The notes under the pieces are model-generated. The model had not been told where the DNA came from. It did no database searches and worked only from the letters and a program-made list of their open reading frames with translations. From NCBI GenBank assembly GCA_964558705.1, contig CAZLFC010000002.1, forward strand, positions 1 to 42,524: a stretch of 42,524 nucleotides of DNA, given 5' to 3'. The stretch comes from an uncultured Dehalococcoidales bacterium. GTDB taxonomy: Bacteria > Chloroflexota > Dehalococcoidia > Dehalococcoidales > GCA-2688105. Positions 4,773 through 42,268 of this stretch are shown here, piece after piece. The stretch's first letter is position 1, and every line of letters starts with the position of its first letter. A program made the translations under genes and the position numbers.

Positions 4773-4806
4773 CTCTGAGGCTTCTCTCTACACACAGACT
4801 GCCTAG

Positions 4807-4835
4807 ATTTTACTAGATGGCAACTAAATATGCAA
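4807..4835 (-). promoter_or_regulatory. Candidate sigma70-type promoter for the HNH gene
   Basis: Read on the minus strand: TTGCAT (4835-4830), 17-nt spacer, TAAAAT (4812-4807), about 35 nt upstream of ATG 4772. Confidence 0.35.
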
Positions 4836-4883
4836 ACTAAAGTCAGGTATCAGTTACTCCTGCCCGACTTTGCAGCCATAACA

Positions 4884-8300: not shown

Positions 8301-8301
8301 T

Positions 8302-8745
8302 CTAACCTGTCTCCTGCTCCGCAACTGTTACCTTTATTTTAGGCACTATATCCTTAGCCAACCTAATGGCTATCTCATAACTGCCGAGCTGGTGAATCGG
8401 CTCGTCCAGTTCTATCTTCCTTTTATCAACAGCGATTCCCGTGCTGCTCTCCAGCTCAGTAGCAATATCAGCGCTGGTAATCGAGCCGTGCAGTCGTTCT
8501 TTAGCCCCGGCCCGGGCTGTTAACACAATCTCTTTCCCGTCCAACTGATTGGCTAACTCAGCATACTCCTGCTCGCCTTTGGCTTCCTTACGACGTTGTG
8601 CCTCCACTATACCGGTAGCTTCCGGACTGACCGGCACAACCAGTTTCCGCGGGATAAGAAAGTTACGACCGTAGCCATCCGCCACCTCCTTCACCTCGCC
8701 CGCACTGGCTACCTTCGGTACATCCTTGATAAAGACTACTTTCAT
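8302..8745 (-). CDS. rplI: 50S ribosomal protein L9
   Basis: MKVVFIKDV...GEVKEVADGYGRNFLIPRKLV is the classic L9 N-terminus. It lies upstream of dnaB, as in many bacteria. Confidence 0.95.
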   Translation of the reverse strand: MKVVFIKDVPKVASAGEVKEVADGYGRNFLIPRKLVVPVSPEATGIVEAQRRKEAKGEQEYAELANQLDGKEIVLTARAGAKERLHGSITSADIATELESSTGIAVDKRKIELDEPIHQLGSYEIAIRLAKDIVPKIKVTVAEQETG

Positions 8746-8788: not shown

Positions 8789-9706
8789 TTATTCACTGAT
8801 AAATTGACCGGCGTATATGGCCGCCGTAGCCCCATCTCCCGCCGCCGCTATAACCTGTCGCGGCGAATTATGGCGTATATCGCCGGCGGCAAAAACACCG
8901 GGCACCGCCGTCTCCATCTTTTCATTGGTGATAATATAACCGGCTTCATCCAGCGGTAAAACACCCTTTAGATAGTCGGTATCAGGCTTAAGCCCGATAG
9001 AGACAAAGACCCCATCTATCTCAATGGCAGAGTCCTGGCCTGTTTTCACATTCTTCAGCCTGACTCTCTCCACGGAGTCGCCGCCTTCAATTTCCTCAAT
9101 TACGGTATCCCACAGGAACTCTATTTTGGGCTCAGCGAAGGCTTTTCTCTGTACGACAGGAGTAGCCCGAAGCTCCCGGCGACGGTGTATCACGGTGACC
9201 TTAGAGGCGAATTTAGCCAGGTGGAGAGCCTCGGTAACGGCGGCATTACCGCCTCCGACGACAGCTATCGACTTACCGCGGAAGAAAAAGGCGTCACAGG
9301 TGGCGCAGTAGGACACCCCTCTACCGGTAAACTTCTTCTCCCCGGGTACATTCAGCTTCTGCCGAATGGAGCCACCGGCAATAATCAAGGCCCGGGCAGC
9401 GAAATCGCCGCCGGTGGTCTTGACCACTTTTCGCTCCTTTTTAAGCTCAAGACCGGTAACCTCAGCGGTGATGATTTCCAGCCCGTATTTCGTTGCCTGC
9501 TGACTCATCAGGTTCCCCAACTCAATACCGCCAACGCCATCAGGGAAACCGGGGTAGTTGTCCACCCACTCGGCATTGGCTATCTGTCCACCCACCAGAC
9601 CCTTTTCCACCAGCAGGCTCTTTAGCGCCGCCCTGGCTGTGTAAAGTCCAGCCGTAAGCCCCGCAGGACCGCCACCAATGATAACCACCTCATATTCTTC
9701 AGCCAT
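8789..9706 (-). CDS. trxB: Thioredoxin-disulfide reductase
   Basis: FAD motif GGGPAG, redox-active CATCD, NADPH motif GGGNAA, and C-terminal GD motif. Confidence 0.93.
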   Translation of the reverse strand: MAEEYEVVIIGGGPAGLTAGLYTARAALKSLLVEKGLVGGQIANAEWVDNYPGFPDGVGGIELGNLMSQQATKYGLEIITAEVTGLELKKERKVVKTTGGDFAARALIIAGGSIRQKLNVPGEKKFTGRGVSYCATCDAFFFRGKSIAVVGGGNAAVTEALHLAKFASKVTVIHRRRELRATPVVQRKAFAEPKIEFLWDTVIEEIEGGDSVERVRLKNVKTGQDSAIEIDGVFVSIGLKPDTDYLKGVLPLDEAGYIITNEKMETAVPGVFAAGDIRHNSPRQVIAAAGDGATAAIYAGQFISE

Positions 9707-9740: not shown

Positions 9741-10709
9741 TTAGCTCGTGGGGCTTCCCTCCCACAGGTCGCAGCGTCCTCCCCACCGGGCCAGAACCCG
9801 ACCATTAATTGCGAGCTGAGCTATTTCACAGCAGTTGGGACAGGCTTTACACTCGAAGGAAGAGGTATGATAATCTATTTCACTTACGCTAAACCCCTTA
9901 AACTGACTGCCGTTGGTGCTTCTCTCCATCTCCTCGTGCACCAGCAAGGCAGCGCCTATCGCCCCCATAACCTCGTGGTGGGGCAGGACAATAACTTCGG
10001 TATCAAGCTCTTCCTGAATTGCCCTCACTATACCCTGATTAAAGGCAACCCCTCCCTGAAACACTATGGGCGGCTTGATATTCTTGCCCAGACCGACATT
10101 ATTAAGATAGTTACGCACCAACGCCTGGCAAAGTCCGTAGATAATATCCTCAACACGATGCCCCATCTGCTGCTTATGCACCATATCCGATTCGGCAAAG
10201 ACGGTGCAGCGTCCCGCGATACGCACCGATGTATTACTATCCAGCGCCCGCTGTGCAAATTCCTCAATACTCATATTGAGGCGCAGCGCCTGATGGTCAA
10301 GAAAGCTGCCGGTGCCAGCGGCACATACGGTGTTCATACCGAAGTCAACTACCACTCCGTCCCTGATAATGATAATCTTGCTATCCTGTCCCCCAATTTC
10401 AATGATGGTCTGGACTTCAGGCACATATTGCAGGGTAGCCACCGCATGGCTGGTAATCTCATTCTTGACCAGGTCAGCGCCAACGATAACCCCGGTCAGG
10501 TAACGAGCGCTTCCCGTAGTCGCCACACCGCGAATGTAAACATCCCGCGGTAATCGCGACTCTATATGCCTCAGTCCCTGCTGCACCATATCAATCGGCT
10601 TGCCCTGGGTCGGCAAGTAAACATGGGCAACCAGTTCATCACTGTCATCAAGCACCGCCAGCTTGGTGGTTACCGAGCCAACATCTATACCTAAATAAGC
10701 TTCCATCAT
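9741..10709 (-). CDS. BadF/BadG/BcrA/BcrD-type ATPase (HgdC-like [4Fe-4S] activase) with a C-terminal Cys-rich tail
   Basis: ASKHA phosphate-1 motif GIDVGSVTTK. The two cluster-bridging Cys contexts are present (VCAAGTGSFL, RCTVFAESD). Extra CKACPNCC...C tail. Start overlaps the upstream stop (ATGA). Confidence 0.85.
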   Translation of the reverse strand: MMEAYLGIDVGSVTTKLAVLDDSDELVAHVYLPTQGKPIDMVQQGLRHIESRLPRDVYIRGVATTGSARYLTGVIVGADLVKNEITSHAVATLQYVPEVQTIIEIGGQDSKIIIIRDGVVVDFGMNTVCAAGTGSFLDHQALRLNMSIEEFAQRALDSNTSVRIAGRCTVFAESDMVHKQQMGHRVEDIIYGLCQALVRNYLNNVGLGKNIKPPIVFQGGVAFNQGIVRAIQEELDTEVIVLPHHEVMGAIGAALLVHEEMERSTNGSQFKGFSVSEIDYHTSSFECKACPNCCEIAQLAINGRVLARWGGRCDLWEGSPTS

Positions 10710-11803
10710 ACGGCTACCCGCTGTCGTTTATTACCCACTCTTCGCTTGCGTTCCAAGAGGTCAACAAAAGCCTCAAGTCTGGTTAACATGCCAGGCTTGG
10801 CCAGTTGTTCATCACAGAGCATGGTCAGCACCGGGATATTCTCCCTGGTTGACGGCATGATATTTTGTGCCACTATTTCCGGCATACAGGTAAACGGAGC
10901 CAAGTGCACTATACCATCATACTCTTTAGCATGGAGCACCTTTTCTCCCACCGATTCCCAGCCATCACCGCCAACGTCCCGTTTAAGATAAGGTAGCGCT
11001 GCTTTATGAATCTTCTTCGTATCATCTATGCCCAGCGGATTGAGGAACAGGCTGTACTTAACCCAATCCGAGATAAAGGTTCTTCGCCTCACCTCCACCC
11101 CCAGCTTACCCAGCTCATTCTCTACATCCAGGTTAGAGAAGGGCTCCAGCAAAACATAAAACTCTCCGGTAATACCCACTATCAACGGTTGTGCCGAGGT
11201 ATCTCTGGGCACCCGGTTAAGCCGGTCAATGTAGTCTGTTTCCACCTTCCTCAAAGCATCATAATCATCAGTCTGCTCAATGTCCTTAATCGCCTGGTTA
11301 AGTAATTTGCTGGCTGTCCCCTTTTCCAGCTCTACCGCCCTCACCTTCTGCACCAGTCGCTCTATTTTATCCGCAGTACCCAGTTTCGCCACACCAAAGC
11401 GAAAAGCCGAGATAATCTTGGGCCAGCTTTCCCCATTGGTCAACTGCCTTATCGTCTGCAGAAAGCCAAGAAGCTTGTTTTCGGAAATACCGAATTGAAC
11501 CAGCTCGACATCATAGCCCAGGTCATGGAGAATCTGTTTCTGTATCTTGGCGTAGTAGCCCAAACGGCAAATACCGGAGCCGCTCACCATCAGCATAGTG
11601 TCGGCTCCCATCTCAGCCACCTCGATTAGATTACCCAGCGTCAGCTTGAACGGGATACAAAGCCCTTCCGGAGAATACTTGACACCCAGTGATAGAGCCC
11701 GCTGGTTACAGGCCGGTGGTACTATCAACTCACCACCCAGCCTGTCGGCCATGGCCTTAATACCTATATAAAGATTGCCGAGATGAGGCATGCCTACCAG
11801 CAT
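10706..11803 (-). CDS. DUF2229-type protein (activase-associated, BCR/HAD-related component)
   Basis: The motif pattern (GLCIPFKLTLGN, SGICRLGYY, FTCMPEI) resembles the C-terminal domains of large proteins annotated as 'CoA-substrate-specific enzyme activase'. Overlaps neighbours by 10 and 4 nt. Confidence 0.7.
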   Translation of the reverse strand: MLVGMPHLGNLYIGIKAMADRLGGELIVPPACNQRALSLGVKYSPEGLCIPFKLTLGNLIEVAEMGADTMLMVSGSGICRLGYYAKIQKQILHDLGYDVELVQFGISENKLLGFLQTIRQLTNGESWPKIISAFRFGVAKLGTADKIERLVQKVRAVELEKGTASKLLNQAIKDIEQTDDYDALRKVETDYIDRLNRVPRDTSAQPLIVGITGEFYVLLEPFSNLDVENELGKLGVEVRRRTFISDWVKYSLFLNPLGIDDTKKIHKAALPYLKRDVGGDGWESVGEKVLHAKEYDGIVHLAPFTCMPEIVAQNIMPSTRENIPVLTMLCDEQLAKPGMLTRLEAFVDLLERKRRVGNKRQRVAV

Positions 11804-12795
11804 ACTGCCACCTGCTTCCTTTTTCTTATAGCTACCATATCGAGAAATGCTTCCAGTCGGGTGACTACCCCGGTTTCAGCAGTGTGCTCTTCCACGGTAA
11901 GGCTCATAAAAGGTGTGGTCATCAACCGGGCCGACTGCCGCCGCACCATATCCATCATTAAGGAATCGGGGCCGCAACCAAAAGCCATTATGCCGATAAC
12001 ACCGTCAACACCTCTCTCCAGATAATACCCCCCGGCGCCCACTACTTCCTCCTCATAAGTCCAGTGCTCCCGGCTGGTTAAACGAGTGGTGGCTGCTTCC
12101 AGCTCACTTTTAACAATCATCTCCGGCGTAAACACTTGATAATGAGCCTTCTCCAGCCAGTGAACCAGACGATGACTGATATGTTCATCATAAAGGAGAT
12201 ACGGATGACCGATGAGAGCAATAGTTCCCTGAGACAGGCCGTTGGCAAATGTTTCCGGTTCTACCTCAGGTGTGCCCGAGAATCGTTCTATTGCCCGCGG
12301 GGAGGTTAATTTACAGTCGGACATCAACTGCCGATAATCCAAGTGTGCTTGCCAGGCATTCATGCTGGCTTGCCTGATTTTAAAAGGGTCCTTCGTAAAA
12401 TGTCGTCCCAAGCTGTAAATGGACTGGTACAGGGAAGGCTTCCCTTTATTTATATCTATATCCACATCCAGGATAGGAGGGGATTCGGGGATAACCGCCT
12501 TGGTCATATCGGGTAAGCCGAGAAACTTGGAACAGTTGTAAGCCTTTGTTTTCACGCTGCGGATAGCCGGAACAAAAACATAGTCGCACTGCCCTGTCAG
12601 GTGAAGAACATGCCCCAGGAACACCTTTACCGGCAGGCAGGTCTCGGATACCACTCGAGACGAACCTGCGGACAGCATAACCTGCGTGGTTGGCGGTGAG
12701 ACTACCACCTCTGCCCCCATCTGCTCAAAGAAAGTCTGCCACATCGGGTAATACTGGTAATAAAGCAGGGCTCGTGGAATGCCTATTTTAATCAT
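11794..12795 (-). CDS. DUF2229-type protein (activase-associated, BCR/HAD-related component), paralog of 10706..11803
   Basis: Starts IKIGIPRALLYYQYYPMW..., then ETCLPVKVFLGH and GCGPDS. ATGA overlap with the upstream M20 gene. Confidence 0.7.
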   Translation of the reverse strand: MIKIGIPRALLYYQYYPMWQTFFEQMGAEVVVSPPTTQVMLSAGSSRVVSETCLPVKVFLGHVLHLTGQCDYVFVPAIRSVKTKAYNCSKFLGLPDMTKAVIPESPPILDVDIDINKGKPSLYQSIYSLGRHFTKDPFKIRQASMNAWQAHLDYRQLMSDCKLTSPRAIERFSGTPEVEPETFANGLSQGTIALIGHPYLLYDEHISHRLVHWLEKAHYQVFTPEMIVKSELEAATTRLTSREHWTYEEEVVGAGGYYLERGVDGVIGIMAFGCGPDSLMMDMVRRQSARLMTTPFMSLTVEEHTAETGVVTRLEAFLDMVAIRKRKQVAVCW

Positions 12796-13964
12796 TTGCC
12801 TTGTTGAAACTCCCTTTTAACCCTACCAAGTATTTTCGGTTCAGCCACCAAGTCAACGACAGTCATGGCTAGAGCCTTAGCCGCATCAATTAAACCCTTA
12901 ATTCCCGCTGCCGAGGCAGCCGCCTGGGCAAACTGAGGAGAATGAACTATAACCTCCTCCGGAGCTATAGCTATGTGAGGATGGATGCTGGGCACTACCT
13001 GGCTGACATTACCCATATCAGTACTGCCAAAAGTTTTACTGGGGTCGGAGAGCTTAATCCGGCGTCCCAGGGTCTGCATATTTTCCCGGAACTGTCGAGC
13101 TAAGGTCAGGTTATTACGCATCGGAGCATAGCATACCTCTCCCCAGCGATATTCAAGGCGAGCCCCGGTAGCCATAGCCGCGCCTTTGAAGCAATTCAAT
13201 ACCTTTTCTTTAAGCTCATCAAGATAAGTGTAATCCTCAGCACGCACCAGAAAAGTAGCGGCGCTGTGGGCAGGTACCACATTGGCCGCTGCCCCACCAT
13301 CAGTAATAATACCGTGCAGGCGAGCTTTATCCTTAATGTGCTGTCGTAACGCATTAACACCGGCAAAGGACAGGAGCAATGCCTCCAGAGCATTGATGCC
13401 TGCCTCCGGTCGAGCTGCGGAGTGAGCCTCTTTGCCCAAGAACTCGATATACAGGTTCTGGCAGGCAAGAGCGGTGGTGGTAGCCGAATTATGCCCGCCG
13501 GGATGCACCATCATTGCCACGTCCAGATTAGCAAAGGCTCCCCGGTCAACCATCGATACCTTACCGCCGTATATCTCCTCAGCCGGCGTGCCGATAACCA
13601 GTACCGTACCCCCGAACCGGTCAACAGCCAGCTTGGAGGCTACCCCGGCGCCAACCGCACTGGTAGCTATTAAATTATGACCGCAGGCATGACCGAGCCC
13701 GGGCAGGGCATCATACTCAGCCAGAATACCGACGACCGGTTCTCCTTGCCCGTAGCTGGCTCGGAAAGCGGTGGACAACTCACAGATGCCCCGTTCTATA
13801 GAGAAACCCTTCTCCTCCAGATATTGGGTCAACCAGGCTGCTGCCTTATCCTCCTGGAAACCCAGCTCAGGGTTGGCATGAATCTTCAGACTCAGCTCAC
13901 TGAGCTCATGACGGCGAGCTTCTACCTCGTCTATAATCGAAGCCTTTGTTTTTTCTATATCCAA
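12792..13964 (-). CDS. M20-family amidohydrolase/metallopeptidase
   Basis: GHACGHNLI metal-binding motif, GTPAEE, and MVHPG. TTG start at 13964 with a GGGGGGAGAG RBS. Confidence 0.85.
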   Translation of the reverse strand: MDIEKTKASIIDEVEARRHELSELSLKIHANPELGFQEDKAAAWLTQYLEEKGFSIERGICELSTAFRASYGQGEPVVGILAEYDALPGLGHACGHNLIATSAVGAGVASKLAVDRFGGTVLVIGTPAEEIYGGKVSMVDRGAFANLDVAMMVHPGGHNSATTTALACQNLYIEFLGKEAHSAARPEAGINALEALLLSFAGVNALRQHIKDKARLHGIITDGGAAANVVPAHSAATFLVRAEDYTYLDELKEKVLNCFKGAAMATGARLEYRWGEVCYAPMRNNLTLARQFRENMQTLGRRIKLSDPSKTFGSTDMGNVSQVVPSIHPHIAIAPEEVIVHSPQFAQAAASAAGIKGLIDAAKALAMTVVDLVAEPKILGRVKREFQQGK

Positions 13965-19699: not shown

Positions 19700-20800
19700 T
19701 TGGGTAAGATAAATGTAGCTATAATAGGTGCTGGCAACTGTGCCTCGTCACTGGTCCAAGGCATTCAATTCTACAAGCAAGCCAAAGAAACTGAATTCGT
19801 GCCTGGACTTATGCATGTTAATCTGGGTGGGTATCATATCAGCGACATCAATTTCGTAGCCGCCTTTGATATTGATAAAAACAAGGTCGGTAAAGACCTG
19901 GCCCAGGCAATTTTCACCAAGCCCAATAATACCTTTAAATTTTGCGATGTACCAACCACCGGTGTTAAAGTGCAGCGAGGCATGACCCATGACGGACTCG
20001 GCAAGTACCTGTCGCAAATAATAGAGAAAGCACCCGGCCCCACAGCCGACATAGTCAAAATCCTTAAAGAAACCAAAACCGATATAGTAATTAACTACCT
20101 GCCCGTGGGCAGCGAAGAGGCAACTAAATGGTATATCGAGCAGGTGCTGGAAGCTCACTGCGGCTTGATAAACTGTATCCCGGTTTTTATTGCCCGCGAG
20201 AAGTACTGGCAGGAGCGCTTTGCTGACAAGGGCCTCCCCATTATTGGCGATGATGTAAAATCTCAGGTTGGAGCCACCATAGTTCATCGCGTGCTTACCC
20301 GGCTATTTAGAGACCGCGGGGTTAGATTGGAGAGAACCTACCAATTGAATTTCGGCGGTAATACCGACTTCCTGAACATGTTAGAGCGGGAGCGCCTTGA
20401 ATCCAAGAAGATATCCAAGACTTCCGCCGTTACCTCCCAGTTAGATTATACCTTTGACCCCAATGATATTCATGTAGGTCCCAGTGATTATGTTCCCTGG
20501 CTTGACGACCGCAAGTTCTGCCATATCAAAATGGAGGGACGAACCTTCGGCGATGTCCCCCTGAACCTTGAGCTTAAGCTTGAGGTGTGGGACAGTCCTA
20601 ACTCAGCCGGAGTAGTTATTGATGCTATAAGATGCTGCAAGCTTGGTTTGGACCGGGGATTGAAAGGCTCACTGATAGGCCCTTCTGCCTATTTTATGAA
20701 GTCGCCACCCGTCCAATATTCGGATGATGAAGCCCGCCGAATGGTAGAAGAGTTCATTGTCAGTACCCAGCCAACTGCCGGAGAAAATTCAACTGAGTAA
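19700..20800 (+). CDS. ino1: myo-Inositol-1-phosphate synthase
   Basis: NAD-binding N-terminus [16 protein letters not shown]; the DD-K context [14 protein letters not shown]; [16 protein letters not shown] start after GGAAAGGAGAAG. Confidence 0.88.
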
Positions 20801-20830
20801 ATCTGTAAGGAGGTTCCACGAAAACCGCTT

Positions 20831-21997
20831 ATGAAAATAGCACTGGTCTCCCCTTATGACTTTGCCTACCCGGGCGGTGTAACCAACCATATCTCATCGC
20901 TTTATTACTACCTTTCCCAAATGGGGCATGACGTCAAGGTAATTGCCCCCGCATCTAAGGTAGTCTCCACTTTTGGTGATAGGTTTATACCACTAGGCAG
21001 ACCCCGGTCTATTCCTGCCAGTGGCTCCATTGCTCGTGTTACCATATCAATCAGACTGGGGCCCGCCATTAAAGCCGTGCTCGCTAGTGAGAACTTTGAT
21101 ATTGTCCACCTTCATGAACCCTTTATGCCTATGCTATGCACCACCGTACTCCATCTGTCAAAGACCAAAATGGTAGGTACTTTTCACGCCTTTGCCGGTA
21201 AGCCCGCCTATAATTTTGGCAAACCCCTTACCATCCGACTTCTGAGGAAGTGGTTCCAGAAGCTTGACGGCAAGATTGCCGTGTCCAAACCCGCCATGGA
21301 GTTTGCTAACAAACATCTAACCGGACACTACGATATTATCCCTAACGGAGTTGATTTAAAGCATTTTTCTCCCGATGTGCCCCCAATCGATGAATTCTGT
21401 GATGGAAAACTGAATATTCTTTTTACCGGTCGCCTGGAGAAACGAAAAGGGGTGAACTATCTGCTTAAAGCCTACCAGCGAGTCAAGGAGGAAATCCCTG
21501 ACGCGCGCCTCATCATAGTTGGCCCCGGCACCAGACTGCGCAATAAATATGAGAAACACGTCAGGAAAAATGGTCTAAAGGATGTAGTTTTTACCGGTCA
21601 TGTATCTTATGAGGACCTGCCCAGATATTATAAGACAGCCGACGTTTTCTGTGCCCCGGCTACCGGAAGCGAAAGCTTCGGCATTATCTTACTGGAAGCG
21701 ATGGCTATTGGTAAACCAATCGTTGCCTCCAATATAGACGGCTACGCCAGACTAATAACTCCCGGCGCTGAAGGGCTACTGGTGCCGCCAAGAGATGAGA
21801 AAATGCTAGCCCAGGCACTGGTATCCCTTTTAACTAACGAATCACTCCGGCAAGAGATGGGAGCTAGAGGAATTCTCAAAGCCAAAGAGTACGACTGGAA
21901 ACTTCTTGCCCAACGGATAGTAGATTACTATAACAGCATACTGAATGGGACTCCGTGGGAGGAACAACCAGTGGAATCTGAAGCTATGTCAATCTAA
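20831..21997 (+). CDS. pimA: GT4 glycosyltransferase, PimA-like (phosphatidylinositol alpha-mannosyltransferase candidate)
   Basis: The N-terminus MKIALVSPYDFAYPGGVTNHISSL...GHDVKVIAPAS closely resembles the mycobacterial PimA N-terminus as I recall it. GT4 EX7E region: ESFGIILLEAMAIGKPIVAS. Confidence 0.75.
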   Translation: MKIALVSPYDFAYPGGVTNHISSLYYYLSQMGHDVKVIAPASKVVSTFGDRFIPLGRPRSIPASGSIARVTISIRLGPAIKAVLASENFDIVHLHEPFMPMLCTTVLHLSKTKMVGTFHAFAGKPAYNFGKPLTIRLLRKWFQKLDGKIAVSKPAMEFANKHLTGHYDIIPNGVDLKHFSPDVPPIDEFCDGKLNILFTGRLEKRKGVNYLLKAYQRVKEEIPDARLIIVGPGTRLRNKYEKHVRKNGLKDVVFTGHVSYEDLPRYYKTADVFCAPATGSESFGIILLEAMAIGKPIVASNIDGYARLITPGAEGLLVPPRDEKMLAQALVSLLTNESLRQEMGARGILKAKEYDWKLLAQRIVDYYNSILNGTPWEEQPVESEAMSI

Positions 21998-22047
21998 GTG
22001 AAAACCGATGACAGCTCAGATGGCTTTACTGTAAAAAATAACGTCTA

Positions 22048-22647
22048 ATGACAAAATTATCCGAAATTCGCAAGGCAGCAGGCCATAACTTTGTCCAACC
22101 GGCAGTGCGGTTTCTAGCCAGGACACCGATAACACCTACTACCCTAACCTGGACTGGTTTCTTGCTAGCTGTTGTTGCCGCAGTACTTATTGCCCAAGGA
22201 TACCTTTGGGTCGCCGGGCTAGTGGTGCTTGCTGCCGGTTTCTTCGACCTTCTGGACGGGGCATTAGCCCGATACATCAATCGAACCACCCAGTTTGGTG
22301 CCATCCTTGATTCCACGCTTGACCGCCTATCCGAGGGGGCACTGCTAATCGGCATCCTGGTCTTCTATACCAGAGAACCTTCTACTGTCGGCGTCCTACT
22401 AACCGGCATTGCCCTGCTCGGTTCACTGCTGGTGAGCTATCTCAGAGCCAGAGGAGAAGCGCTGGGGCTGGAATGCCAGGGAGGATTATTCACCCGGCCG
22501 GAGAGGGTCATCGTGCTGGCGCTGGGCCTTTTACTGAGCTACTTCAACTATGCCTTAATTACTGCATTAGGTATCATCGTGATATTTAGTTTTATTACCG
22601 TTGGTCAGAGGTTAGTCCATTTGTGGCGAGAAACAAAGGACAGGTAG
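22048..22647 (+). CDS. CDP-alcohol phosphatidyltransferase (phosphatidylinositol-phosphate synthase candidate)
   Basis: Full family motif D-x2-DG-x2-AR-x8-G-x3-D-x3-D, seen as FDLLDGALARYINRTTQFGAILDSTLDR. About six TM segments. Confidence 0.85.
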   Translation: MTKLSEIRKAAGHNFVQPAVRFLARTPITPTTLTWTGFLLAVVAAVLIAQGYLWVAGLVVLAAGFFDLLDGALARYINRTTQFGAILDSTLDRLSEGALLIGILVFYTREPSTVGVLLTGIALLGSLLVSYLRARGEALGLECQGGLFTRPERVIVLALGLLLSYFNYALITALGIIVIFSFITVGQRLVHLWRETKDR

Positions 22648-34861: not shown

Positions 34862-36553
34862 TCAGTTAGCCGGAGCGAAGTCGAGGATATTGAGCCTGAG
34901 TTTCTCCTCCCCACCCCAACGGTCCAGCTCCAGATTGTAGACAATATCAACTAATGAGGATAACTCAGCCAGATAGCCGCCCAATCTGAAACCGACCCCA
35001 TCCCACACCACGCCACCCTGTCTCAGCTTCAGTCTCACATGCTCACCACTACCACCCATGGTGCGGCACTCGGCCACCTCCACTCCCCTGCTTAGAAAGG
35101 TAGGTGCCGGATTACCATAACCAAAGGGAGCCAGCTGCCGGGTTGTGTTGAAGGTATCACCACCGATGTCGGCGAGACTAACCTCGGCATCGATATCAAT
35201 ACAGGCGCGAAGGTCAACCCCTTCCAACTGTGTAGCCGCCAGTTGAGATAGACGCTGCTTCAGGTCGGCTAAATTCTTCGTGGGCAGAGTAAAACCAGCC
35301 GCCCGTGCATGTCCGCCAAACTCCAATAAAAGGTCGCTACACTGTTCCAGGGCAAAGGTAACATTAAACTCCGAGATACTGCGGCAACTCCCGTTACTCA
35401 CCTTTTCACCAATTTTAACCGCAATAGCCGGACGGTAGAATTCTTCGGTTAGCCGGCCAGCCACCAATCCGATAATACCCCCCGGGTATTCCTTATCGCC
35501 CACCATCAGTAACGGTGAAATCCCCTCGGCTAATATCCGCTCCCTGGCTTTAGATAAGGCAGCAGCGGTTAATCTCTGCCGCTCTTTATTTTTTTGCTCC
35601 AGCCAGGCAGCCAACCTTTGCGCCTCCGACGGCGAATCTGTCATCAGCAACTTATAGCCGTCCATGGCATGTTCCATCCGTCCGGCAGCATTCAAGCGAG
35701 GAGCTATAACCCATGAAACACTCTCGGATTCAACGCCGCCGATGTTTAATCCGGCTTGAGTCATCAGCTCCCTGACTCCAAGGCGAGGGTTGGCATTAAT
35801 CAGCCTCAGTCCCTGTTTAGCCAGATATCGGTTTTCCCCCACCAGAGGCATCATATCGGCTATGGTTCCCAGGGCCACTAAATCCAGTAATTCATCCAGT
35901 TGTTGCTCTTTGCCAACACCCCGAAAGAGTGCCTGAACAAGCTTAAAAGCTACACCAACACCAGCTAATTCGACGAAAGGGTAAGATGACCCGGGCATTT
36001 TGGGGTCGACAATAGCCAAGGCAGGCGGAATTTCGGATAGAGGGATATGATGGTCGGTAATAATTATATCCAGTCCCAGCTTCCGCGCCCGCTTAACCTG
36101 AGATACCGCTGTAATTCCACAGTCAACGGTAATAACCAGGTTAATCCCCTGCTGGCAAAGCTCCTCCAGAGCGGCAGTTCTGAGTCCGTGCCCCTCGTTC
36201 AGGCGATGGGGTATATAAGTAACCGCCCTGCCACCAAGGTCATTAAGACCCCTGACGAGTACCGCCGTAGCCGTGATACCGTCAACATCAAAGTCGCCGT
36301 AGACAGCAATATTTTCACCGGCAAGTAAGGACCGGTAAATCCGGGCTACTGCCTTGTCCATATCAGGCAGCAGAAAGGGGTCACCCGCCATACTTTTATC
36401 AGCAGAGATGAATGCTTCAAACCGGGATGGTTCAGTAACACCACGATTATACAGAAGCTGAAGTATAAGCGGGGGGAATCCGGAGGCGCTATTAGCCAGA
36501 AGCTCATCTGGAACAGGAGGAAGAAGATTCCAACGACTACGGTTCAATTCCAC
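34862..36553 (-). CDS. recJ: Single-stranded-DNA-specific exonuclease RecJ
   Basis: DHH motifs DFDVDGITA, VDCG, ITDHH, and DHHA1 GGHARAAG. The GTG start overlaps the fabF end by 10 nt. Confidence 0.92.
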   Translation of the reverse strand: MELNRSRWNLLPPVPDELLANSASGFPPLILQLLYNRGVTEPSRFEAFISADKSMAGDPFLLPDMDKAVARIYRSLLAGENIAVYGDFDVDGITATAVLVRGLNDLGGRAVTYIPHRLNEGHGLRTAALEELCQQGINLVITVDCGITAVSQVKRARKLGLDIIITDHHIPLSEIPPALAIVDPKMPGSSYPFVELAGVGVAFKLVQALFRGVGKEQQLDELLDLVALGTIADMMPLVGENRYLAKQGLRLINANPRLGVRELMTQAGLNIGGVESESVSWVIAPRLNAAGRMEHAMDGYKLLMTDSPSEAQRLAAWLEQKNKERQRLTAAALSKARERILAEGISPLLMVGDKEYPGGIIGLVAGRLTEEFYRPAIAVKIGEKVSNGSCRSISEFNVTFALEQCSDLLLEFGGHARAAGFTLPTKNLADLKQRLSQLAATQLEGVDLRACIDIDAEVSLADIGGDTFNTTRQLAPFGYGNPAPTFLSRGVEVAECRTMGGSGEHVRLKLRQGGVVWDGVGFRLGGYLAELSSLVDIVYNLELDRWGGEEKLRLNILDFAPAN

Positions 36554-37803
36554 GCCTCATCATATTTCTGGAAGACCAAGACTGAATTGTGACCGCCAAA
36601 GCCAAAGGAATCAGACAGAGCAGTAGTAACCTCGACTCGACGGCTTACATTAGGCACATAATCCAAATCACAAGCTGGGTCAGGGTGGGTAAGGTTTATA
36701 GTTGGTGGTATAAACCCTTGTTGAATAACCATAACACATATCGCGGCTTCAACCGCGCCAGCACCACCCAGAAGATGACCCATCATTGATTTAGTCGAGC
36801 TTATCGGTAGGCGATAGGCATAGTCACCAAATACGGATTTTATCGCCGCCGTCTCCATCCTGTCATTCAGCAGTGTGGCTGTACCGTGAGCGTTAATATA
36901 ACCAACCTCGGCAGGGCTAAGCCCGGCTTTATCGAGTGCCATTCTTATCGCCCTGGCCGCCCCTTCTCCGCTGACATCCGGCTGGGTAACATGGTAGGCA
37001 TCAGCACTAATTCCGTAGCCTGTAATCTCGGCCAGGATTCGGGCTCCACGACTCTGAGCTAAGTCAAGGTTCTCCAGAACCAGTATGCCGGCGCCCTCAC
37101 CAAGGACAAAGCCATCTCGCTCGGCATCGAAGGGTCGTGAAGCCAGTCGCGGCTCGTTATTGCACGTGGATAAAGCCCTGCAGGCATTAAAGGCAGCGAT
37201 ACCTATCGGGGTTATTACTGCCTCGCTGCCACCGGCTATCATCGCCTGAGCATCACCACGCCTGATAAACTCATAAGCGGCGCCGACAGCGTCAGTGCTG
37301 CTGGAGCAAGATGACGTGGTACAGAAGTTGGGCCCTTTAGCTCCAAGCAGGATTGATACCTGTGCCGCAGCCATATCAGCCGCCATCATTGGTGCCAGAA
37401 AGGGGCTTACTCTATCCGGCCCCTTCTTCGAGAGGAGTACCATTTGCTCAGCCAGAGTACTTATCCCACCTGACCCGCTGCCAATGATGACGCCAAAATC
37501 TTCATGATTGCTGGGATTCACTGTTATCCCGGCTTGCCGCACCGCCTGAAAGGAAGCCGCTACAGCCAGCTGGCCATAGCGGTCCATATGACGGGCATCT
37601 TTTCGGCTGATATAGTCAGTGGGATTAAATCCTTTTACCTCACCGGCAATCCTGGTGTCAAAGGGCTCAGGGTCAAAGTGGGTAATATAATCAATACCGG
37701 ACTTACCGGCGATAAGACTTTCCCAGGTAGCGACAGCATTCAGACCGAGCGGACACAGGACACCTGTCCCGGTGACCGCAACCCTATTTTTCGCAGTTGA
37801 CAT
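36544..37803 (-). CDS. fabF: 3-oxoacyl-ACP synthase II
   Basis: RVAVTGTG; active-site Cys context TTSSCSSS; two catalytic His contexts (DAYHVTQP, NAHGTAT); GHLLGGAG; FGFGGHN. I preferred ATG 37803 over TTG 37812. Confidence 0.92.
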   Translation of the reverse strand: MSTAKNRVAVTGTGVLCPLGLNAVATWESLIAGKSGIDYITHFDPEPFDTRIAGEVKGFNPTDYISRKDARHMDRYGQLAVAASFQAVRQAGITVNPSNHEDFGVIIGSGSGGISTLAEQMVLLSKKGPDRVSPFLAPMMAADMAAAQVSILLGAKGPNFCTTSSCSSSTDAVGAAYEFIRRGDAQAMIAGGSEAVITPIGIAAFNACRALSTCNNEPRLASRPFDAERDGFVLGEGAGILVLENLDLAQSRGARILAEITGYGISADAYHVTQPDVSGEGAARAIRMALDKAGLSPAEVGYINAHGTATLLNDRMETAAIKSVFGDYAYRLPISSTKSMMGHLLGGAGAVEAAICVMVIQQGFIPPTINLTHPDPACDLDYVPNVSRRVEVTTALSDSFGFGGHNSVLVFQKYDEAWN

Positions 37804-37838
37804 CCCCACCAAAGCTGAGGTTACCTATTATCCCAAAC

Positions 37839-38192
37839 CTAGAGATACATCTTCTTATTTGTCTGCTGTTTAAACCACTCACGACCATCGTCAACCTTGG
37901 GCAGATCATCCAGTGCCTCTTTGTTATCGTCGATGTATTTCTTACCCTTTTCAGTGAGCCCTACCTGAAGAAGGTATGTAACCCAAGTAAGATAGCCTTT
38001 ATTAACCATTCCTTCCAATATGTCAGCCCACTCCCTGACCTTTTTCTCCGTCCAGAGCATTGGCCCGGCGGCATCCCAATCATCGATTATCTTACGGCAA
38101 TGGTAACCGACACCGCTGCGCTCAATCATGCCTTCCTGGCGCATCGCGTCCATGATGGCCATTTCCATTAATGACAACTTTTCCTCAGCCAT
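37839..38192 (-). CDS. Hypothetical protein, possibly winged-helix-like (117 aa)
   Basis: I chose ATG 38192, preceded by GGGAGGA, over the track's TTG 38231. The segment KGYLTWVTYLLQVGLTEKGKKYI resembles a MarR/PadR-type wing. I recognise no confident family. Confidence 0.55.
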   Translation of the reverse strand: MAEEKLSLMEMAIMDAMRQEGMIERSGVGYHCRKIIDDWDAAGPMLWTEKKVREWADILEGMVNKGYLTWVTYLLQVGLTEKGKKYIDDNKEALDDLPKVDDGREWFKQQTNKKMYL

Positions 38193-38245
38193 AACTAGGC
38201 TAATCCTCCCTTTCAAAAGTTTTCCAGACAATCGCTCAAACTCAA

Positions 38246-38992
38246 TTATTTTTGTGGTTTAGGAGCCGGATGAGCAATATTTGTTGGGTTCACAAATTCC
38301 GATAGCTGCTGCATCTCCCAGGCTCGGTTGTACCAACCGGGAATAGCCATCAGCGGGGTAGGCAGTCCCCTCTGCCGTCTAAACCGCAAAATCATCTCAG
38401 CCGTTATCTCCGCGGTCAAGGCAACCATATCAACCGCATAGGTTGACCACATCGAAAATATCTCAGCCGACTTAACCCTCTGCAACTCCATAGGGTCAGT
38501 ACGATTAACCGGCGCCAGTTTTACGCCGTAATGATGTTGCATCAGGTCACCGCAGCGCAGATAACCGCCGGTGCGCTCCTTAAATCGCTCTCTAAGTTCG
38601 GTCGACATCCGCTGAGACCAGGTAAAGCTACTTTGACCTGTATCGCGAGGTCCCCCATGCTCAGTGTAATCCACTCGCCCGAACTCAAGGCCAATTGCCG
38701 CGAGCCCTCCAACGAGCGCACCACAAATCTCGGTACCACCAAAGCCCCCGGTAGGAGTAGCCATGGCTGTCAGAACTTCTCTGCCCCCAAGGCCAAGGTG
38801 TACGCACAAGGGATACAAAGAAGTCTGAGCACAAGCCCGATATTTAAGCTGAGCTTCCCGCGCGTCCCGGACTATTCTCCTCATTAAAGTCTCGTCATCT
38901 GTTTCATCCCGACTTTCAAATAGCCAGTCTTTCTCATGCTGTTTATTTGCAAAACAATCATTGAGATGAACACACTCCCGTCCGAATACCAT
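38246..38992 (-). CDS. C_GCAxxG_C_C-family protein (putative redox-active), enlarged
   Basis: Family pattern read by eye: YRACAQTSL ... GGFGGTEICGALVGGLAAIG ... LRCGDL. AAGGAGG RBS 8 nt upstream. At 248 aa it is longer than I remember for this family. Confidence 0.7.
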   Translation of the reverse strand: MVFGRECVHLNDCFANKQHEKDWLFESRDETDDETLMRRIVRDAREAQLKYRACAQTSLYPLCVHLGLGGREVLTAMATPTGGFGGTEICGALVGGLAAIGLEFGRVDYTEHGGPRDTGQSSFTWSQRMSTELRERFKERTGGYLRCGDLMQHHYGVKLAPVNRTDPMELQRVKSAEIFSMWSTYAVDMVALTAEITAEMILRFRRQRGLPTPLMAIPGWYNRAWEMQQLSEFVNPTNIAHPAPKPQK

Positions 38993-39046: not shown

Positions 39047-42000
39047 CTATTTCTTCCACTCTTCCCGGCGGCCTTCAGCTCCAGCCATCTTGCCGATAAT
39101 ATGCCTTCTCTCCAGGTCTCTGATTCTATCCGAGCTCAAACCGACGAACCGCCTCAGTACATACTCATTATCCCAGCCTAGTGGTTTGCCAACAAACTCA
39201 ATAACACCTGAGGTTGCTGAGTATAGCGGGAAACAACCCTGCATTTTCATCCTCCCATACCAGGGGCAATCAACATCTACAATCTCACCCCTTTCCAGAT
39301 AGTGTTTCTGAGTGCAAGCATCTTCAGCATCCTTTATAGGACAGGTAGCAAACCCATAGTGCCTACCTAAAGCCTCAATCTCGTCCACGGTTAATTTAGC
39401 TGCCCACTCTTGAAGAATCGCGTATATCTTATCCTGAGCCACGTTAGACACCCGCTCAACATTAGTAGGATACTTGGACGGCAGTACTGTAGCCTTCCCA
39501 CCAATACACTCGCATAATTTCACAAAGGCTTCATCATCGGCACCAACGGCAACAAATCCATCCTCAGCTTTGACAATGCCATCAGGACATACCCAGCGAT
39601 GCCTATTACCGTACCTTTCCTGAACTATACCCGTCTTACCATACCAGGTAACACCGGGACCGAGAGCTCTAACCTGGAACTCAGTCTGCGAGTTCTCAAT
39701 AAATTGCCCTTTGCCACTTTTTTCCCGCCAGAAGAGAGCAACGAGGACACCGATACTAGCCATTACCCCGCCAAAGTAATCGTCTACCCAGATAGGAACC
39801 TTCGTTTGCTCACCATCAGGATGGCCGGTAATATAAGCACTCCCTCCATTGGATTGCGCCAAGATATCATAGGATGCTCTTACCAAGTCTTCACGACCCC
39901 ACTGACCGGGTCCGTTCGAGGCAGCAAAGATTAAGCCGGGGTTGTCTTTTGATAGCTGACGCCAGCCGATACACCACCGGTCCATAGTGCCACCACGAAC
40001 ATTCTGTATAACCACATCAGATTTGCTTACCAGGTTTTTAACTATCTCTGCACCGGGGCCGGGATGGATATCAAGGGAAACATGGAGTTTGTTGCGGGCA
40101 CAATGTAGCCAGCCAAGTGCCGAACCCAACGGCGGGCATACCTCCTCAGTAACCCCCTTACCAAGGATGCCCTCTGCCCTGGTGTTACTCTCTGCCTCAG
40201 TCCACTTCATAACACCACCTTGGTCTAACGGGGGTGATGTATAACGCATGGTATCACCAAAGCCGGGAATCTCCAGCTTTATTGTTTCCATACCCATTTC
40301 AGCTAGTATAGCCGCGGCAGAAGGACCCAATATTAAAGTTGTCCAGTCTATAAGACGCAAGCCATCCAAAGGTCTCGGTTTACCCCATCCCCTTTCTTTG
40401 GCAAAGGTATAGCGGCAGTACTCATCATAGGGTAAGGCCTCCTCCTCCTCCTCCGTTAACTCGCAACAAAGACTCCTCGCCTTTAGAACCAGTTCCTTAA
40501 TATCACCGGGCAACCCGTAGAAATCACGTATTCTATCCACCTTTATCTCTTTTGCCGCCGGACGCATATGCATCTTTGAGCCACCCCTCACACCAATTAC
40601 CCCCTCTAACTCCAGTGCCTTAAGCATCTCTCTTGACATGCCTAGATGTTTTCGGAGAAGTTCATGGTTATCCCATCCTAATGGCCTAGAAACCCACTTA
40701 ATCCGACCCGGCGTCTCGCTAAAATTGGGTCTGGTTCCCTGAATGAGCACCTTGCCATACAGAGGGTCATCCACTTCCAAAATAACAGCTCTATCCAGAA
40801 AATGGGGATGTTCACAAATTTCTTTAATGTTAAAGACACCACCAGCAGCAAAGCCATTTTCCATAGCTATTTCATCCAGCTCATCCATAGTATGCTGGGT
40901 TGTCCACTTGTCTATCTCAGCATTGATAACTTTCTGTCGCTCCCAGGAGACACGCGCCGTATTGTCAGGATACTCGGTCTTCATCCGCTGGGCTTCCTCG
41001 GTGCCGATGGCATCACATAGCCGCGGGTATACCGGCCCCATAGCAGCTACAATACTGTAGCGATCTCCCTTACAGGGGTGCAATCCGTAGGGGTTGATGG
41101 TGAAGTCCCAGTCGCCCCAGGGCCCACGAACCTTGCCGGTGGTGCTATACCAATTAAAGCTAACATCGCAGCTCCACATAATGAGCCCCTCGGAGGATAC
41201 GTCTATGAACTGGCCTTGTCCGTTTTTCCTCTTACGGTAAAGAAGAGCGCCCAGGATACCAATAGTAGCCAGTATACCTCCCGAGATGTAGCCTATAGGC
41301 CAGCCAATGCGAGTTGGCACTGAATCCTTGACAGCCTCCTCATATGTTTCTGCCTCATAATTAACCTGACCGGTAAATGAAGCAAGGGTGCTCATCGCCT
41401 GAATGCCCGTTTCAAATGGGTACCGCCAGGACTCATCTCCCCACTGACCATACCCGGTCACTGCACAGTAAATAAGGCGCGGATTTATTTTCCTCAACTG
41501 CCGGTAGCCGATACCAAGGGCATCCATATATCCCGGCTCGTAATTTTCAATAATAACGTCAGAAATACCGGCCAAATCCCTGAGCATCGCCCGGCCCTTG
41601 GTGGTGGTAATATCAATGCTCAAGCAATACTTATTTCTGTTTTCGCAGAAGCCAGCCAATGAAGTGCCGTTTGGAGGCCATTTCTCTCCTTCGGCCTTCA
41701 TGGTGCCACCCTGGTCTGCCGGTGGCCCAGCCCAACGCATGGCATCACCCCGATACGGGTCCTCAATCTTTATTACTTCGGCACCGTGCTCCGCTAAGAG
41801 AGAGCCGCAGACTTGCATGCCGAAGTTAGACCAACGAGGGCTGCACACTTCCAATACACGCAGCCCATCCAACGCCTCAGGCTTACTGAATCGCTTCCGC
41901 GAATCAAAAATGTAACGGGCATACTCTTCGTAAGGTAGCTTGTCTTGTTCCTCCGTGGTTAGACTTTCCAGTTTCCACACCTTTTTAACAAGCTCTTGAA

Positions 42001-42163
42001 CCTCTTCGTTCAGGTCTTCCCAACTATATCCAATTGGCTTTACCCCTTCTCTTTCCACTACCTCCTCGGCAAGATGTGAGGTCGTCTCCGAGCTTGTCAT
42101 ATAATACGGCAGTTCGTCCCTCGCTACCTCACTGGGTAATACAGGCTTCTTTTTCTCAACCAT
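39047..42163 (-). CDS. Tandem-duplicated family III (CaiB/BaiF/Frc-type) CoA-transferase, two modules in one polypeptide
   Basis: 1038-aa ORF with AAGGAG 5 nt upstream of ATG 42163. Residues ~50-530 and ~553-1030 are colinear paralogs (LDGLRVLE.../LDGLRLID...; GDAMRWAGPPADQGG/GDTMRYTSPPLDQGG; GWDNHELLRKHLG/GWDNEYVLRRFVG). Confidence 0.85.
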   Translation of the reverse strand: MVEKKKPVLPSEVARDELPYYMTSSETTSHLAEEVVEREGVKPIGYSWEDLNEEVQELVKKVWKLESLTTEEQDKLPYEEYARYIFDSRKRFSKPEALDGLRVLEVCSPRWSNFGMQVCGSLLAEHGAEVIKIEDPYRGDAMRWAGPPADQGGTMKAEGEKWPPNGTSLAGFCENRNKYCLSIDITTTKGRAMLRDLAGISDVIIENYEPGYMDALGIGYRQLRKINPRLIYCAVTGYGQWGDESWRYPFETGIQAMSTLASFTGQVNYEAETYEEAVKDSVPTRIGWPIGYISGGILATIGILGALLYRKRKNGQGQFIDVSSEGLIMWSCDVSFNWYSTTGKVRGPWGDWDFTINPYGLHPCKGDRYSIVAAMGPVYPRLCDAIGTEEAQRMKTEYPDNTARVSWERQKVINAEIDKWTTQHTMDELDEIAMENGFAAGGVFNIKEICEHPHFLDRAVILEVDDPLYGKVLIQGTRPNFSETPGRIKWVSRPLGWDNHELLRKHLGMSREMLKALELEGVIGVRGGSKMHMRPAAKEIKVDRIRDFYGLPGDIKELVLKARSLCCELTEEEEEALPYDEYCRYTFAKERGWGKPRPLDGLRLIDWTTLILGPSAAAILAEMGMETIKLEIPGFGDTMRYTSPPLDQGGVMKWTEAESNTRAEGILGKGVTEEVCPPLGSALGWLHCARNKLHVSLDIHPGPGAEIVKNLVSKSDVVIQNVRGGTMDRWCIGWRQLSKDNPGLIFAASNGPGQWGREDLVRASYDILAQSNGGSAYITGHPDGEQTKVPIWVDDYFGGVMASIGVLVALFWREKSGKGQFIENSQTEFQVRALGPGVTWYGKTGIVQERYGNRHRWVCPDGIVKAEDGFVAVGADDEAFVKLCECIGGKATVLPSKYPTNVERVSNVAQDKIYAILQEWAAKLTVDEIEALGRHYGFATCPIKDAEDACTQKHYLERGEIVDVDCPWYGRMKMQGCFPLYSATSGVIEFVGKPLGWDNEYVLRRFVGLSSDRIRDLERRHIIGKMAGAEGRREEWKK

Positions 42164-42238: not shown

Positions 42239-42268
42239 ATAATACTAAAAATAGACTGCACTTGTCAA
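42239..42268 (-). promoter_or_regulatory. Candidate promoter for the CoA-transferase block
   Basis: Read on the minus strand: TTGACA (42268-42263), 18-nt spacer, TATTAT (42244-42239), about 70 nt upstream of ATG 42163. Confidence 0.4.

Follow-up and report, generated by a model that had tools for sequence, protein, structure and literature searches.

A large two-domain family III CoA-transferase from an uncultured Dehalococcoidales bacterium, a probable single-chain pseudo-heterodimer with split, fused and permuted relatives

The window analysed here is a 42,524-nucleotide stretch of DNA from an uncultured Dehalococcoidales bacterium (assembly GCA_964558705.1, contig CAZLFC010000002.1, positions 1 to 42,524), and the subject of this study is one of its genes, an open reading frame (ORF) at positions 39047-42163 of the minus strand, which starts with ATG and encodes a two-domain (α-β fused) family III coenzyme A (CoA) transferase of 1038 amino acids (aa). 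Within this chain a complete family III CoA-transferase is duplicated; its N-terminal, α-like and C-terminal, β-like modules both match the family over its full length, with the catalytic aspartate of the family present in the second module only. Judging from the alignments, the protein is most likely an asymmetric α-β pseudo-heterodimer with a single active site. It is a large, uncharacterised member of a known two-domain class, and this class, the covalent double family III CoA-transferases, is abundant and not a new architecture. The gene and all of its parts described below lie on the minus strand, and coordinates are those of the window.

Results

Scanned against Pfam, the whole protein matches CoA_transf_3 (PF02515) as its sole family, in two stretches and with an E-value of 2e-172. 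With the halves scanned separately, the N-module (aa 98-499, positions 40667-41872) covers positions 1-366 of the 366 in the hidden Markov model (HMM) with 304 bits, and the C-module (aa 599-998, positions 39170-40369) covers positions 1-365 with 274 bits, both exceeding the gathering cut-off of 23.3 bits. When aa 1-545 are compared with aa 546-1038 by BLASTP, aa 76-530 align colinearly with aa 577-1030 at 36% identity over 474 columns, and the E-value of 9e-85 places the internal duplication far above chance. The initial annotation, made from the sequence alone, had proposed a tandem duplication on the basis of matching peptides, and it is this single colinear alignment between the halves that bears the proposal out; all six of the peptides it cited are located in the ORF, and the two full-length matches to the CoA_transf_3 model that it expected were obtained.

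It had also described each module as about 100 aa longer than the canonical enzymes of roughly 400 aa, with a shared N-terminal helical extension, and the comparison with Frc, whose reference sequence was checked to be identical to PDB 2vjk_A, agrees with this. The first copy of the extension spans aa 1-95 (positions 41879-42163) and carries the motif LPYEEYARYIF at aa 76-86; it consists of predicted helices with a predicted local distance difference test (pLDDT) score mostly above 90, is kept in orthologues, and is found too on the free α subunit of the Syntrophales relatives treated below. The second copy, with the motif LPYDEYCRYTF at aa 577-587, forms the linker between the modules (aa 531-595, positions 40379-40573), so that both extensions share the pattern LPY[ED]EY.RY.F. 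No Pfam family matches either of them in the scan of the separated halves. The other added length comes from inserts of 13 and 5 aa in the N-module and of about 25 aa in the C-module.

The two modules differ at the position of the catalytic nucleophile. Namely, D795 of the C-module (codon at positions 39779-39781), the predicted nucleophile, lies opposite the catalytic Asp of SUGCT, YfdE, 4ed9 and 10uh in HMMER alignments and opposite Frc D169 and D178 of BbsEF chain B in a MAFFT alignment, and is invariant in 17 out of 17 orthologues. The equivalent residue of the N-module, opposite the Asp of SUGCT, 10uh and 4ed9 by HMMER and opposite Frc D169 by MAFFT, is not Asp: it is Y292 (codon at positions 41288-41290), in a column that is occupied by Y, H, F, W, S, Q, D or A among the same orthologues and that sits inside an otherwise conserved GWPIG-x-ISGG motif. 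What is more, the N-module has lost the AGP loop that follows the first strand and gained its 5-residue insert there, and it has Phe250 and Ala in place of the canonical Frc residues Tyr139 and Arg104; the C-module retains the GP loop, Tyr765 as the equivalent of Tyr139, and an Arg equivalent to Arg104. A racemase-type His/Asp site, such as the catalytic pair His126/Asp156 of the α-methylacyl-CoA racemase MCR, was considered and rejected, since in front of the conserved acid of the (G/S)(Y/H)D motif the C-module has Tyr765 and the N-module Phe250, and not His.

The same asymmetry extends beyond the orthologues. Among 72 aligned two-domain proteins, the Asp is found at the C-terminal site in 66 and at the N-terminal site in 9, which shows one predicted catalytic Asp per module pair to be the rule across the class. 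The N-module of the window protein is a complete fold devoid of the canonical catalytic Asp; it is not a canonical catalytic unit and is predicted to be non-catalytic. The initial annotation spoke of two complete modules forming a covalent pseudo-dimer. Of this description, the full-length folds and the single chain stand; catalytic completeness does not hold for the N-module, with its Y292 and without the equivalents of Tyr139, Arg104 and the AGP loop, and the pair is better described as a pseudo-heterodimer than as a symmetric dimer, the Asp being invariant in the C-module only. As a separate observation, the two halves of one 792-aa two-domain protein (P0065) share 51% identity, with the Asp retained in each; this looks like a recent duplication that is not yet asymmetric.

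An AlphaFold2 model of the whole chain was obtained from the 72-sequence alignment, the first row of which (P0001) is the window protein apart from the substitution T787M. The model has a mean pLDDT of 91.6 and a predicted template modelling (pTM) score of 0.95, the latter indicating a confidently fixed arrangement of the modules. Searched against the PDB with Foldseek, it matches only chains of about 400 aa, among them those of SUGCT (9br6/9br7), BbsEF (9fn0/9fol), Frc, YfdW, CaiB and Mct, with template modelling (TM) scores of 0.78-0.90 when normalised by the target and of about 0.35 when normalised by the query; no solved fused double is among these matches. The best superpositions of single modules reach TM 0.86-0.90 over about 435 columns (SUGCT, BbsEF, Frc, CaiB, 4ed9), at 21-26% identity to any solved chain in the Foldseek alignments, and they indicate a full family III fold, with its ring shape, for each module. 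By these matches both modules adopt the two-domain ring, in which two linkers connect a large Rossmann domain to a small one, and the two rings presumably interlock within the one chain. With such scores for the modules and for their arrangement, the earlier suggestion that the fusion hard-wires an obligate dimer into one polypeptide is the most plausible one.

Could the single ORF be an artefact, two adjoining genes having been run together through an error of sequencing or assembly near positions 40500-40600, as the initial annotation cautioned? In principle a single indel could fuse two genes such as those of the Syntrophales relatives, which are only 1-4 nt apart. That said, the comparative evidence leaves this a negligible chance. 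An independent metagenome contig (L002) carries the same unbroken ORF at 99.85% DNA identity with one amino acid substitution, T787M, and 16 further clusters at 90% identity, drawn from ENA, JGI and Logan assemblies, encode proteins in the same frame that are 60-79% identical over 100% of the length, giving 17 orthologous clusters of 1030-1043 aa in all. Among GTDB species representatives, five loci from Chloroflexota/Dehalococcoidia metagenome-assembled genomes (MAGs; L010-L013 and L022) are colinear over about aa 1-1037; four of them are from Dehalococcoidia and L010 is labelled only Chloroflexi, and the ORFs are complete at 1030-1043 aa in L010, L011 and L022 and interrupted by a contig end in L012 and L013. 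Finally, the ratio of nonsynonymous to synonymous substitution rates (dN/dS), calculated against a 79%-identical orthologue (L005), is 0.098 for the first extension, 0.089 for the N-module core, 0.29 for the linker and 0.109 for the C-module core. The linker, the least constrained segment, is accordingly still under purifying selection, is modelled with pLDDT 81-95, and is homologous to the N-terminus of the free β subunit. Taken together, the independent contig, the orthologous clusters, the MAG loci and the dN/dS values mark the junction as translated, selected sequence; the fusion is not an assembly artefact, and a frameshift or false join at 40500-40600 is excluded by comparison between assemblies, without recourse to reads. 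Orthologue alignment columns at about aa 530-560 are unconserved, and the idea of an internal start codon being conserved there was dropped, as orthologues do not keep M531 and M533 of the junction. A further observation concerns the comparison with L002: all six nucleotide differences in the ORF, including the one that gives T787M, fall within 60 nt (positions 39803-39862, codons 768-787), which is suggestive of a short tract of recombination or variation a little upstream of D795.

Two-gene versions of the enzyme, the existence of which the initial annotation had left to a database search, were found in a genome scan at nine loci of Syntrophales, Syntrophaceae and Syntrophobacteraceae MAGs, which are 54-57% identical to the window protein over aa 2-1036. 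Here the enzyme is encoded by two adjacent genes, α of about 542 aa and β of about 518 aa, the N-module being 54-57% identical to α and the C-module 58-59% identical to β, and the Asp position is held by F or W in α and by Asp in β. In eight of the loci α ends in (K/R)KGG(G/A)(Y/E) directly before its stop codon; the ATG of β follows that stop by 1-4 nt, in a different frame in all nine loci except L023, and a GGAGG Shine-Dalgarno sequence sits within the terminal Gly codons of α. From this layout the two genes appear to be translationally coupled. The end of α corresponds in the window protein to an RGG motif at aa 526-528 (positions 40580-40588), the fusion point, of which G527 and G528 are invariant among fused proteins. 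Since the free β subunit bears an N-terminal extension of about 75 aa homologous to the linker, the latter is a recycled subunit extension and not a new insertion.

Within the family, N- and C-modules are 33-38% identical to one another, which is closer than either is to the modules of other doubles and suggests a family-specific duplication. A sister family of 867-916 aa (P0018-P0022 and P0124) has the Asp in its first module and Trp at the corresponding site of the second, and in module-level BLAST comparisons its N-module pairs with the C-module of the window protein and its C-module with the N-module; both features point to a reversed order, β and then α. This sister family has a split form as well: in L025 (positions 3093-5801 of that locus) a 447-aa gene bearing the Asp is followed after 43 nt by a 440-aa gene with the Trp site, and L027 (positions 1-2274) is similar. 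The pattern indicates at least two fusions of an α/β heterodimer, covering both orders, or, alternatively, fused forms that have been split.

As to how widespread such proteins are, a library of 1.84 billion proteins, clustered at 50% identity, gave doubles with lengths of 762-1037 aa for 116 of the 150 best-ranked cluster representatives; all of the doubles of about 800 aa that were found are at most 30% identical to the window protein. In a search of plasmids by tblastn with the whole protein, only one-domain genes were found, each matched twice. According to Dong et al. (2018, PMC6006322), bacteria contained 2,401 two-domain family III members in 2017, and before PtmU4 the only characterised one was DddD. 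The latter, a type III CoA-transferase/lyase (PMC10664990), contains a pair of CaiB domains, which in the Endozoicomonas protein span aa 1-416 and 439-821 (PMC7174347). PtmU4, which is monomeric by gel filtration, has a conserved Asp in its C-terminal domain alone, mutants of D430 being 125-400-fold less active, and the same pattern was previously reported for its homologues (PMC6006322). The architecture was initially thought to be unlike that of any characterised enzyme; this view has to be given up, fused doubles being common as well as studied biochemically (PMC6006322, PMC7174347). Other kinds of fusion were seen in the list of homologues (P0061-P0120), namely a type of about 695 aa from Rhodobacteraceae that joins CoA_transf_3 to a flavin reductase domain (PF01613), and fungal proteins that join it to DEAD-box helicase domains, which may be mergers of gene models.

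With regard to gene context, the ATG of the transferase has an AAGGAG Shine-Dalgarno sequence 5 nt in front of it, and upstream there is a promoter-like site, TTGACA-N18-TATTAT (positions 42239-42268, minus strand), with 11 of 12 consensus matches, the assignment being a consensus match only. The upstream neighbour is a divergently transcribed MiaB-like radical SAM gene. Downstream by 54 nt is a co-directional gene for a 248-aa Cys-rich protein of the C_GCAxxG_C_C type (positions 38246-38992, minus strand; PF09719, E 1e-12), followed by a co-directional 130-aa ORF matching no Pfam or NCBIfam family (positions 37839-38231, minus strand), of which a 65% identical copy occupies the same position in L005, then by a FabF-like gene (positions 36544-37812) and, further downstream, RecJ. 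No terminator-like site is found in the gap between the transferase and C_GCAxxG_C_C genes or between the further downstream genes. The C_GCAxxG_C_C gene may share an operon with the transferase; it is not a conserved partner, the two genes being neighbours in the window, L002 and L005 alone, and the whole arrangement of C_GCAxxG, 130-aa ORF, FabF and RecJ recurs only in L002 and L005, the closest relatives.

Elsewhere the neighbours are different. In six Dehalococcoidia loci (L001, L003, L004, L006, L007, L008) a gene for an AMP-forming acyl-CoA ligase of the PRK06187 type lies directly downstream of the transferase; in L009 an AMP-binding ligase gene lies about 3.7 kb downstream, and L006, L008 and L009 have acyl-CoA dehydrogenase (ACAD), MaoC and enoyl-CoA hydratase (ECH) genes nearby. 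The 42.5-kb window has no gene for an AMP-binding acyl-CoA ligase. In seven of the Syntrophales loci (among L014-L021) the gene directly upstream of the α/β pair encodes a PAS-PAS-LuxR(GerE) regulator of 577-683 aa, a position taken in L023 by a PAS-rich hybrid histidine kinase. The enzyme is hosted by MAGs of Dehalococcoidia and Syntrophales, which come from diverse anoxic environments, peat (SPRUCE) and lake samples among them. Since neighbours differ among the window and L005, the other Dehalococcoidia and the Syntrophales, an assignment of the substrate from context was rejected. Nor is any NCBIfam equivalog reached: the best scores are 310 bits against a cut-off of 700 (succinyl-CoA:mesaconate) and 297 against 750 (succinate-glutarate), and the formyl-CoA, oxalate and carnitine CoA-transferase models also score far under their cut-offs. 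We agree with the initial annotation that the substrate cannot be inferred from the sequence. Just upstream of the transferase in L001 (positions 9363-9664 of that locus) and L006 (7370-7681) there are paired tiny Cys-rich ORFs of 42-47 aa with weak similarity to Desulfoferrodoxin_N.

The rest of the window consists of housekeeping genes, among them those of NusA, IF-2, TruB, PNPase, DapA/B, Asd, PurA and DnaB. Three groups deserve separate mention. At positions 9741-13964 (minus strand) the gene of a BcrAD_BadFG-type ATPase (322 aa) adjoins two ORFs of the DUF2229 "CoA enzyme activase" type (365 and 333 aa) and an M20 peptidase gene, in an activase-like cluster that is uncharacterised and has no positional relation to the transferase. 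Genes for a myo-inositol-1-phosphate synthase, a GT4 glycosyltransferase and a CDP-alcohol phosphatidyltransferase stand in a row at positions 19700-22647 (plus strand), which suggests the synthesis of an inositol-containing lipid or solute. Finally, genes for an HNH endonuclease, a DnaC/IstB-like ATPase, a DnaB_2 protein and a DnaB helicase are clustered at positions 4254-8324 (minus strand), where the start of a 511-aa ORF was probably miscalled, as it overlaps the next ORF by about 215 nt.

Discussion

We consider it probable, if far from certain, that the protein works as a single-chain α-β pseudo-heterodimer in which Asp795 mediates acyl/CoA transfer at one composite site. Under this interpretation, the two ring-shaped modules would fold around each other like the subunits of a canonical enzyme, and only one interface cavity would be functional, namely that formed on the C-module's Rossmann domain, with Asp795 as its nucleophile and the N-module completing it. 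Asp795 would attack the acyl-CoA donor to give an acyl-aspartyl anhydride, from which CoA-S- would displace the acid to leave an aspartyl-CoA thioester, and the incoming carboxylate would then acquire CoA by the reverse steps. The N-module would serve as a conserved, catalytically dead scaffold or half-site subunit. A single active site is the simplest reading of the finding that the Asp is present only in the C-module and that the canonical residues of the N-module are lost. The substrate would be a carboxylic acid, which in related Dehalococcoidia is probably supplied by the adjacent AMP-forming acyl-CoA ligase, with the product probably passed on to enzymes of the β-oxidation type. As for the origin, a family-specific tandem duplication may have produced an α/β gene pair, a state persisting in Syntrophales, and the pair may then have been fused in Chloroflexota (Dehalococcoidia) by loss of the stop codon of α, the extension of β becoming the linker.

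Unfused enzymes of the family offer a comparison. In the family III homodimers, the subunits interlock and form the active site at their interface (PMC9813914). Frc, YfdW, CaiB, SUGCT and Mct have the same fold as each module, with the Asp nucleophile at the end of the Rossmann domain, and SUGCT is the best match of the window modules in both sequence and fold; these enzymes, however, consist of two identical chains with two equivalent sites, whereas the window protein is one chain with two diverged modules (36% identity) and one Asp. Heteromeric one-domain enzymes of the family are BbsEF, SmtAB and SptAB, which, like the α/β pair of Syntrophales, are made of paralogous subunits encoded by adjacent genes. 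The chains of BbsEF (PDB 9fn0/9fol) are among the best structural matches, with TM 0.86-0.90, and its covalent CoA adduct is named on one residue, D178 of chain B, the very residue aligned with D795. A tblastn search of plasmids with chain B, reconstructed from an alignment, turned up no bbs operon, the best hit being at 45%. These three complexes are described as α2β2, and their subunits, unlike the window protein, are unfused and only about 400-410 aa long. Their substrates (benzylsuccinate, malate and phthalate) are indicated by their operons, and there is no such operon at the window.

Several observations nevertheless weigh against the account just given. Context varies by lineage, and the window itself is without the acyl-CoA ligase gene; the NCBIfam scores are far under every equivalog cut-off; both characterised doubles exceed plain CoA transfer, DddD being a transferase/lyase and PtmU4 passing the acyl group to a sulfur carrier; and, with respect to origin, fission of a fused ancestor in Syntrophales is equally as possible as fusion. 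Finally, the N-module keeps the GxxVIKxE...GDxxR and NRNK motifs and is no less conserved than the C-module, and it may contain a second ligand-binding site, or a catalytic one that acts via another residue.

The last point leads to what is the second alternative, namely that both modules are functional. Here, the N-module would bind CoA or acyl-CoA and, via non-canonical residues, carry out a second reaction or act as an allosteric or channeling site, making the enzyme bifunctional in the way in which DddD combines transferase and lyase steps. One can argue for this from the equally strong purifying selection on the two modules (dN/dS 0.089 vs 0.109), from the retained Rossmann-type GAEVIKIEDP..GDAMRW and NRNK motifs, from the remodelled first loop, which with its 5-aa insert and invariant C107 and W111 is conserved and not decaying, and from the example of DddD, according to which two-domain enzymes may bear an extra activity. 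However, the known activities of this fold (transferase, intramolecular transferase, racemase) all use the Asp, the place of which is taken here by anything from Y, H, F or W to S, Q, D or A; the equivalents of Frc Tyr139 and Arg104 are lost as well; and strong constraint is also expected for a subunit that forms half of its partner's site and one ring of an interlocked fold. We therefore regard a functional site in the N-module as unlikely, though worth keeping in mind.

The main alternative to CoA transfer at Asp795 is acyl transfer of the PtmU4 kind. PtmU4 and the acyl-CoA synthetase PtmA3 form a "thioacid cassette" that converts an acyl-CoA to a thiocarboxylic acid (PMC6006322). By analogy, a ligase-made acyl-CoA would acylate Asp795, and the acyl group would go to a sulfur donor (the thiocarboxylate of a sulfur-carrier protein, a persulfide or HS-), giving a thiocarboxylic acid, or to some other non-carboxylate nucleophile. 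The two systems have several features in common. Both have two tandem family III domains per chain, the catalytic Asp confined to the C-terminal one, and a poorly conserved linker (here with dN/dS 0.29, vs 0.09-0.11 for the cores); the monomeric state of PtmU4 in solution is in keeping with a pseudo-dimer made of one chain; and just as PtmU4-type orthologues are often paired with an AMP-forming acyl-CoA synthetase, so are orthologues of the window protein, the two-domain transferase being immediately followed by an AMP-binding ligase in the six Dehalococcoidia loci named above. One could add a ThiS/MoaD-family gene about 2.5 kb upstream of the transferase in L007 and L008, and the C_GCAxxG_C_C gene next to the transferase in the window, which encodes a Cys-rich, "putative redox-active" protein.

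Several points speak against this reading. Pairs of a ligase and a transferase are typical of ordinary CoA cycling too, CaiC/CaiB being one such pair, and the ThiS gene of L007 and L008 lies beside a molybdenum enzyme and may be MoaD. As seen in those loci (L007/L008:5175-7740), this 90-aa ThiS/MoaD-family gene and that of a molybdenum hydroxylase large subunit are divergent from the transferase and ligase genes. Moreover, no sulfur-carrier (ThiS/MoaD) gene was noticed in the window, which thereby differs from a PtmU4-type cassette. The proteins themselves differ as well, PtmU4 having 619 aa including a His6 tag and a truncated, reduced N-domain, against 1038 aa with two complete, full-length modules plus extensions in the window protein, to which, as noted above, all the doubles of about 800 aa are at most 30% identical. 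The published thioacid group, finally, is confined to Actinobacteria and Beta/Gammaproteobacteria (PMC6006322), while the type described here occurs in Dehalococcoidia and Syntrophales. All in all, we find acyl transfer of the PtmU4 kind rather improbable.

Would DddD itself, a DMSP CoA-transferase/lyase, be a better guide? DddD shares with the window protein its membership of family III and the tandem two-CaiB-domain architecture (PMC7174347), and it is the best hit of some CoA-transferases of SAR202, a group within Chloroflexota (PMC5395668). That said, DddD is known from marine aerobic Proteobacteria, where it is part of a DMSP catabolic operon and has its added lyase step, and the hosts here are Dehalococcoidia and Syntrophales MAGs from anoxic settings. 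At about 820-840 aa it is some 200 aa shorter than the window protein, and in the published tree it is an outgroup to the other two-domain enzymes. No DddD-named family or protein appeared in the NCBIfam scan, whose library may hold no DddD model, or among the listed homologues, and there are no ddd-type transporter or dehydrogenase genes near the transferase, its neighbours being those of FabF, RecJ, the radical SAM enzyme and the C_GCAxxG protein. That the window protein is a DddD orthologue is thus extremely improbable.

A more speculative combination of the above would be that the α/β enzymes of this clade, be they fused, split or of swapped order, are not plain CoA-transferases, that their Asp-less but highly conserved α module has been remodelled as a second functional site, and that the single chain couples cleavage of acyl-CoA at Asp795 to a non-carboxylate acceptor. 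In such a case α could dock a Cys-rich or sulfur-carrier partner, for instance the adjacent C_GCAxxG_C_C protein. We consider this a long shot; if true, it would bring a reaction of a new type to Dehalococcoidia and Syntrophales, both strict anaerobes.

Returning to the single-chain pseudo-heterodimer with one composite site, the value of the present analysis lies in the series of split, fused and permuted forms, along with the rule of one Asp per pair, and not in a new kind of enzyme. The Syntrophales gene pair, the Dehalococcoidia fusion and the β-α sister family in its split and fused states together make up a natural series that leads from an interlocked dimer to a single chain, in which the fusion point is mapped to the residue and the linker is traced to a recycled subunit extension. 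For this reason, the subfamily is well suited to the study of pseudoenzyme subunits and of how threaded single chains fold. For the organisms, the finding draws attention to an uncharacterised, lineage-restricted enzyme of acyl-CoA metabolism in two uncultivated anaerobic groups that are known to degrade recalcitrant organic acids.

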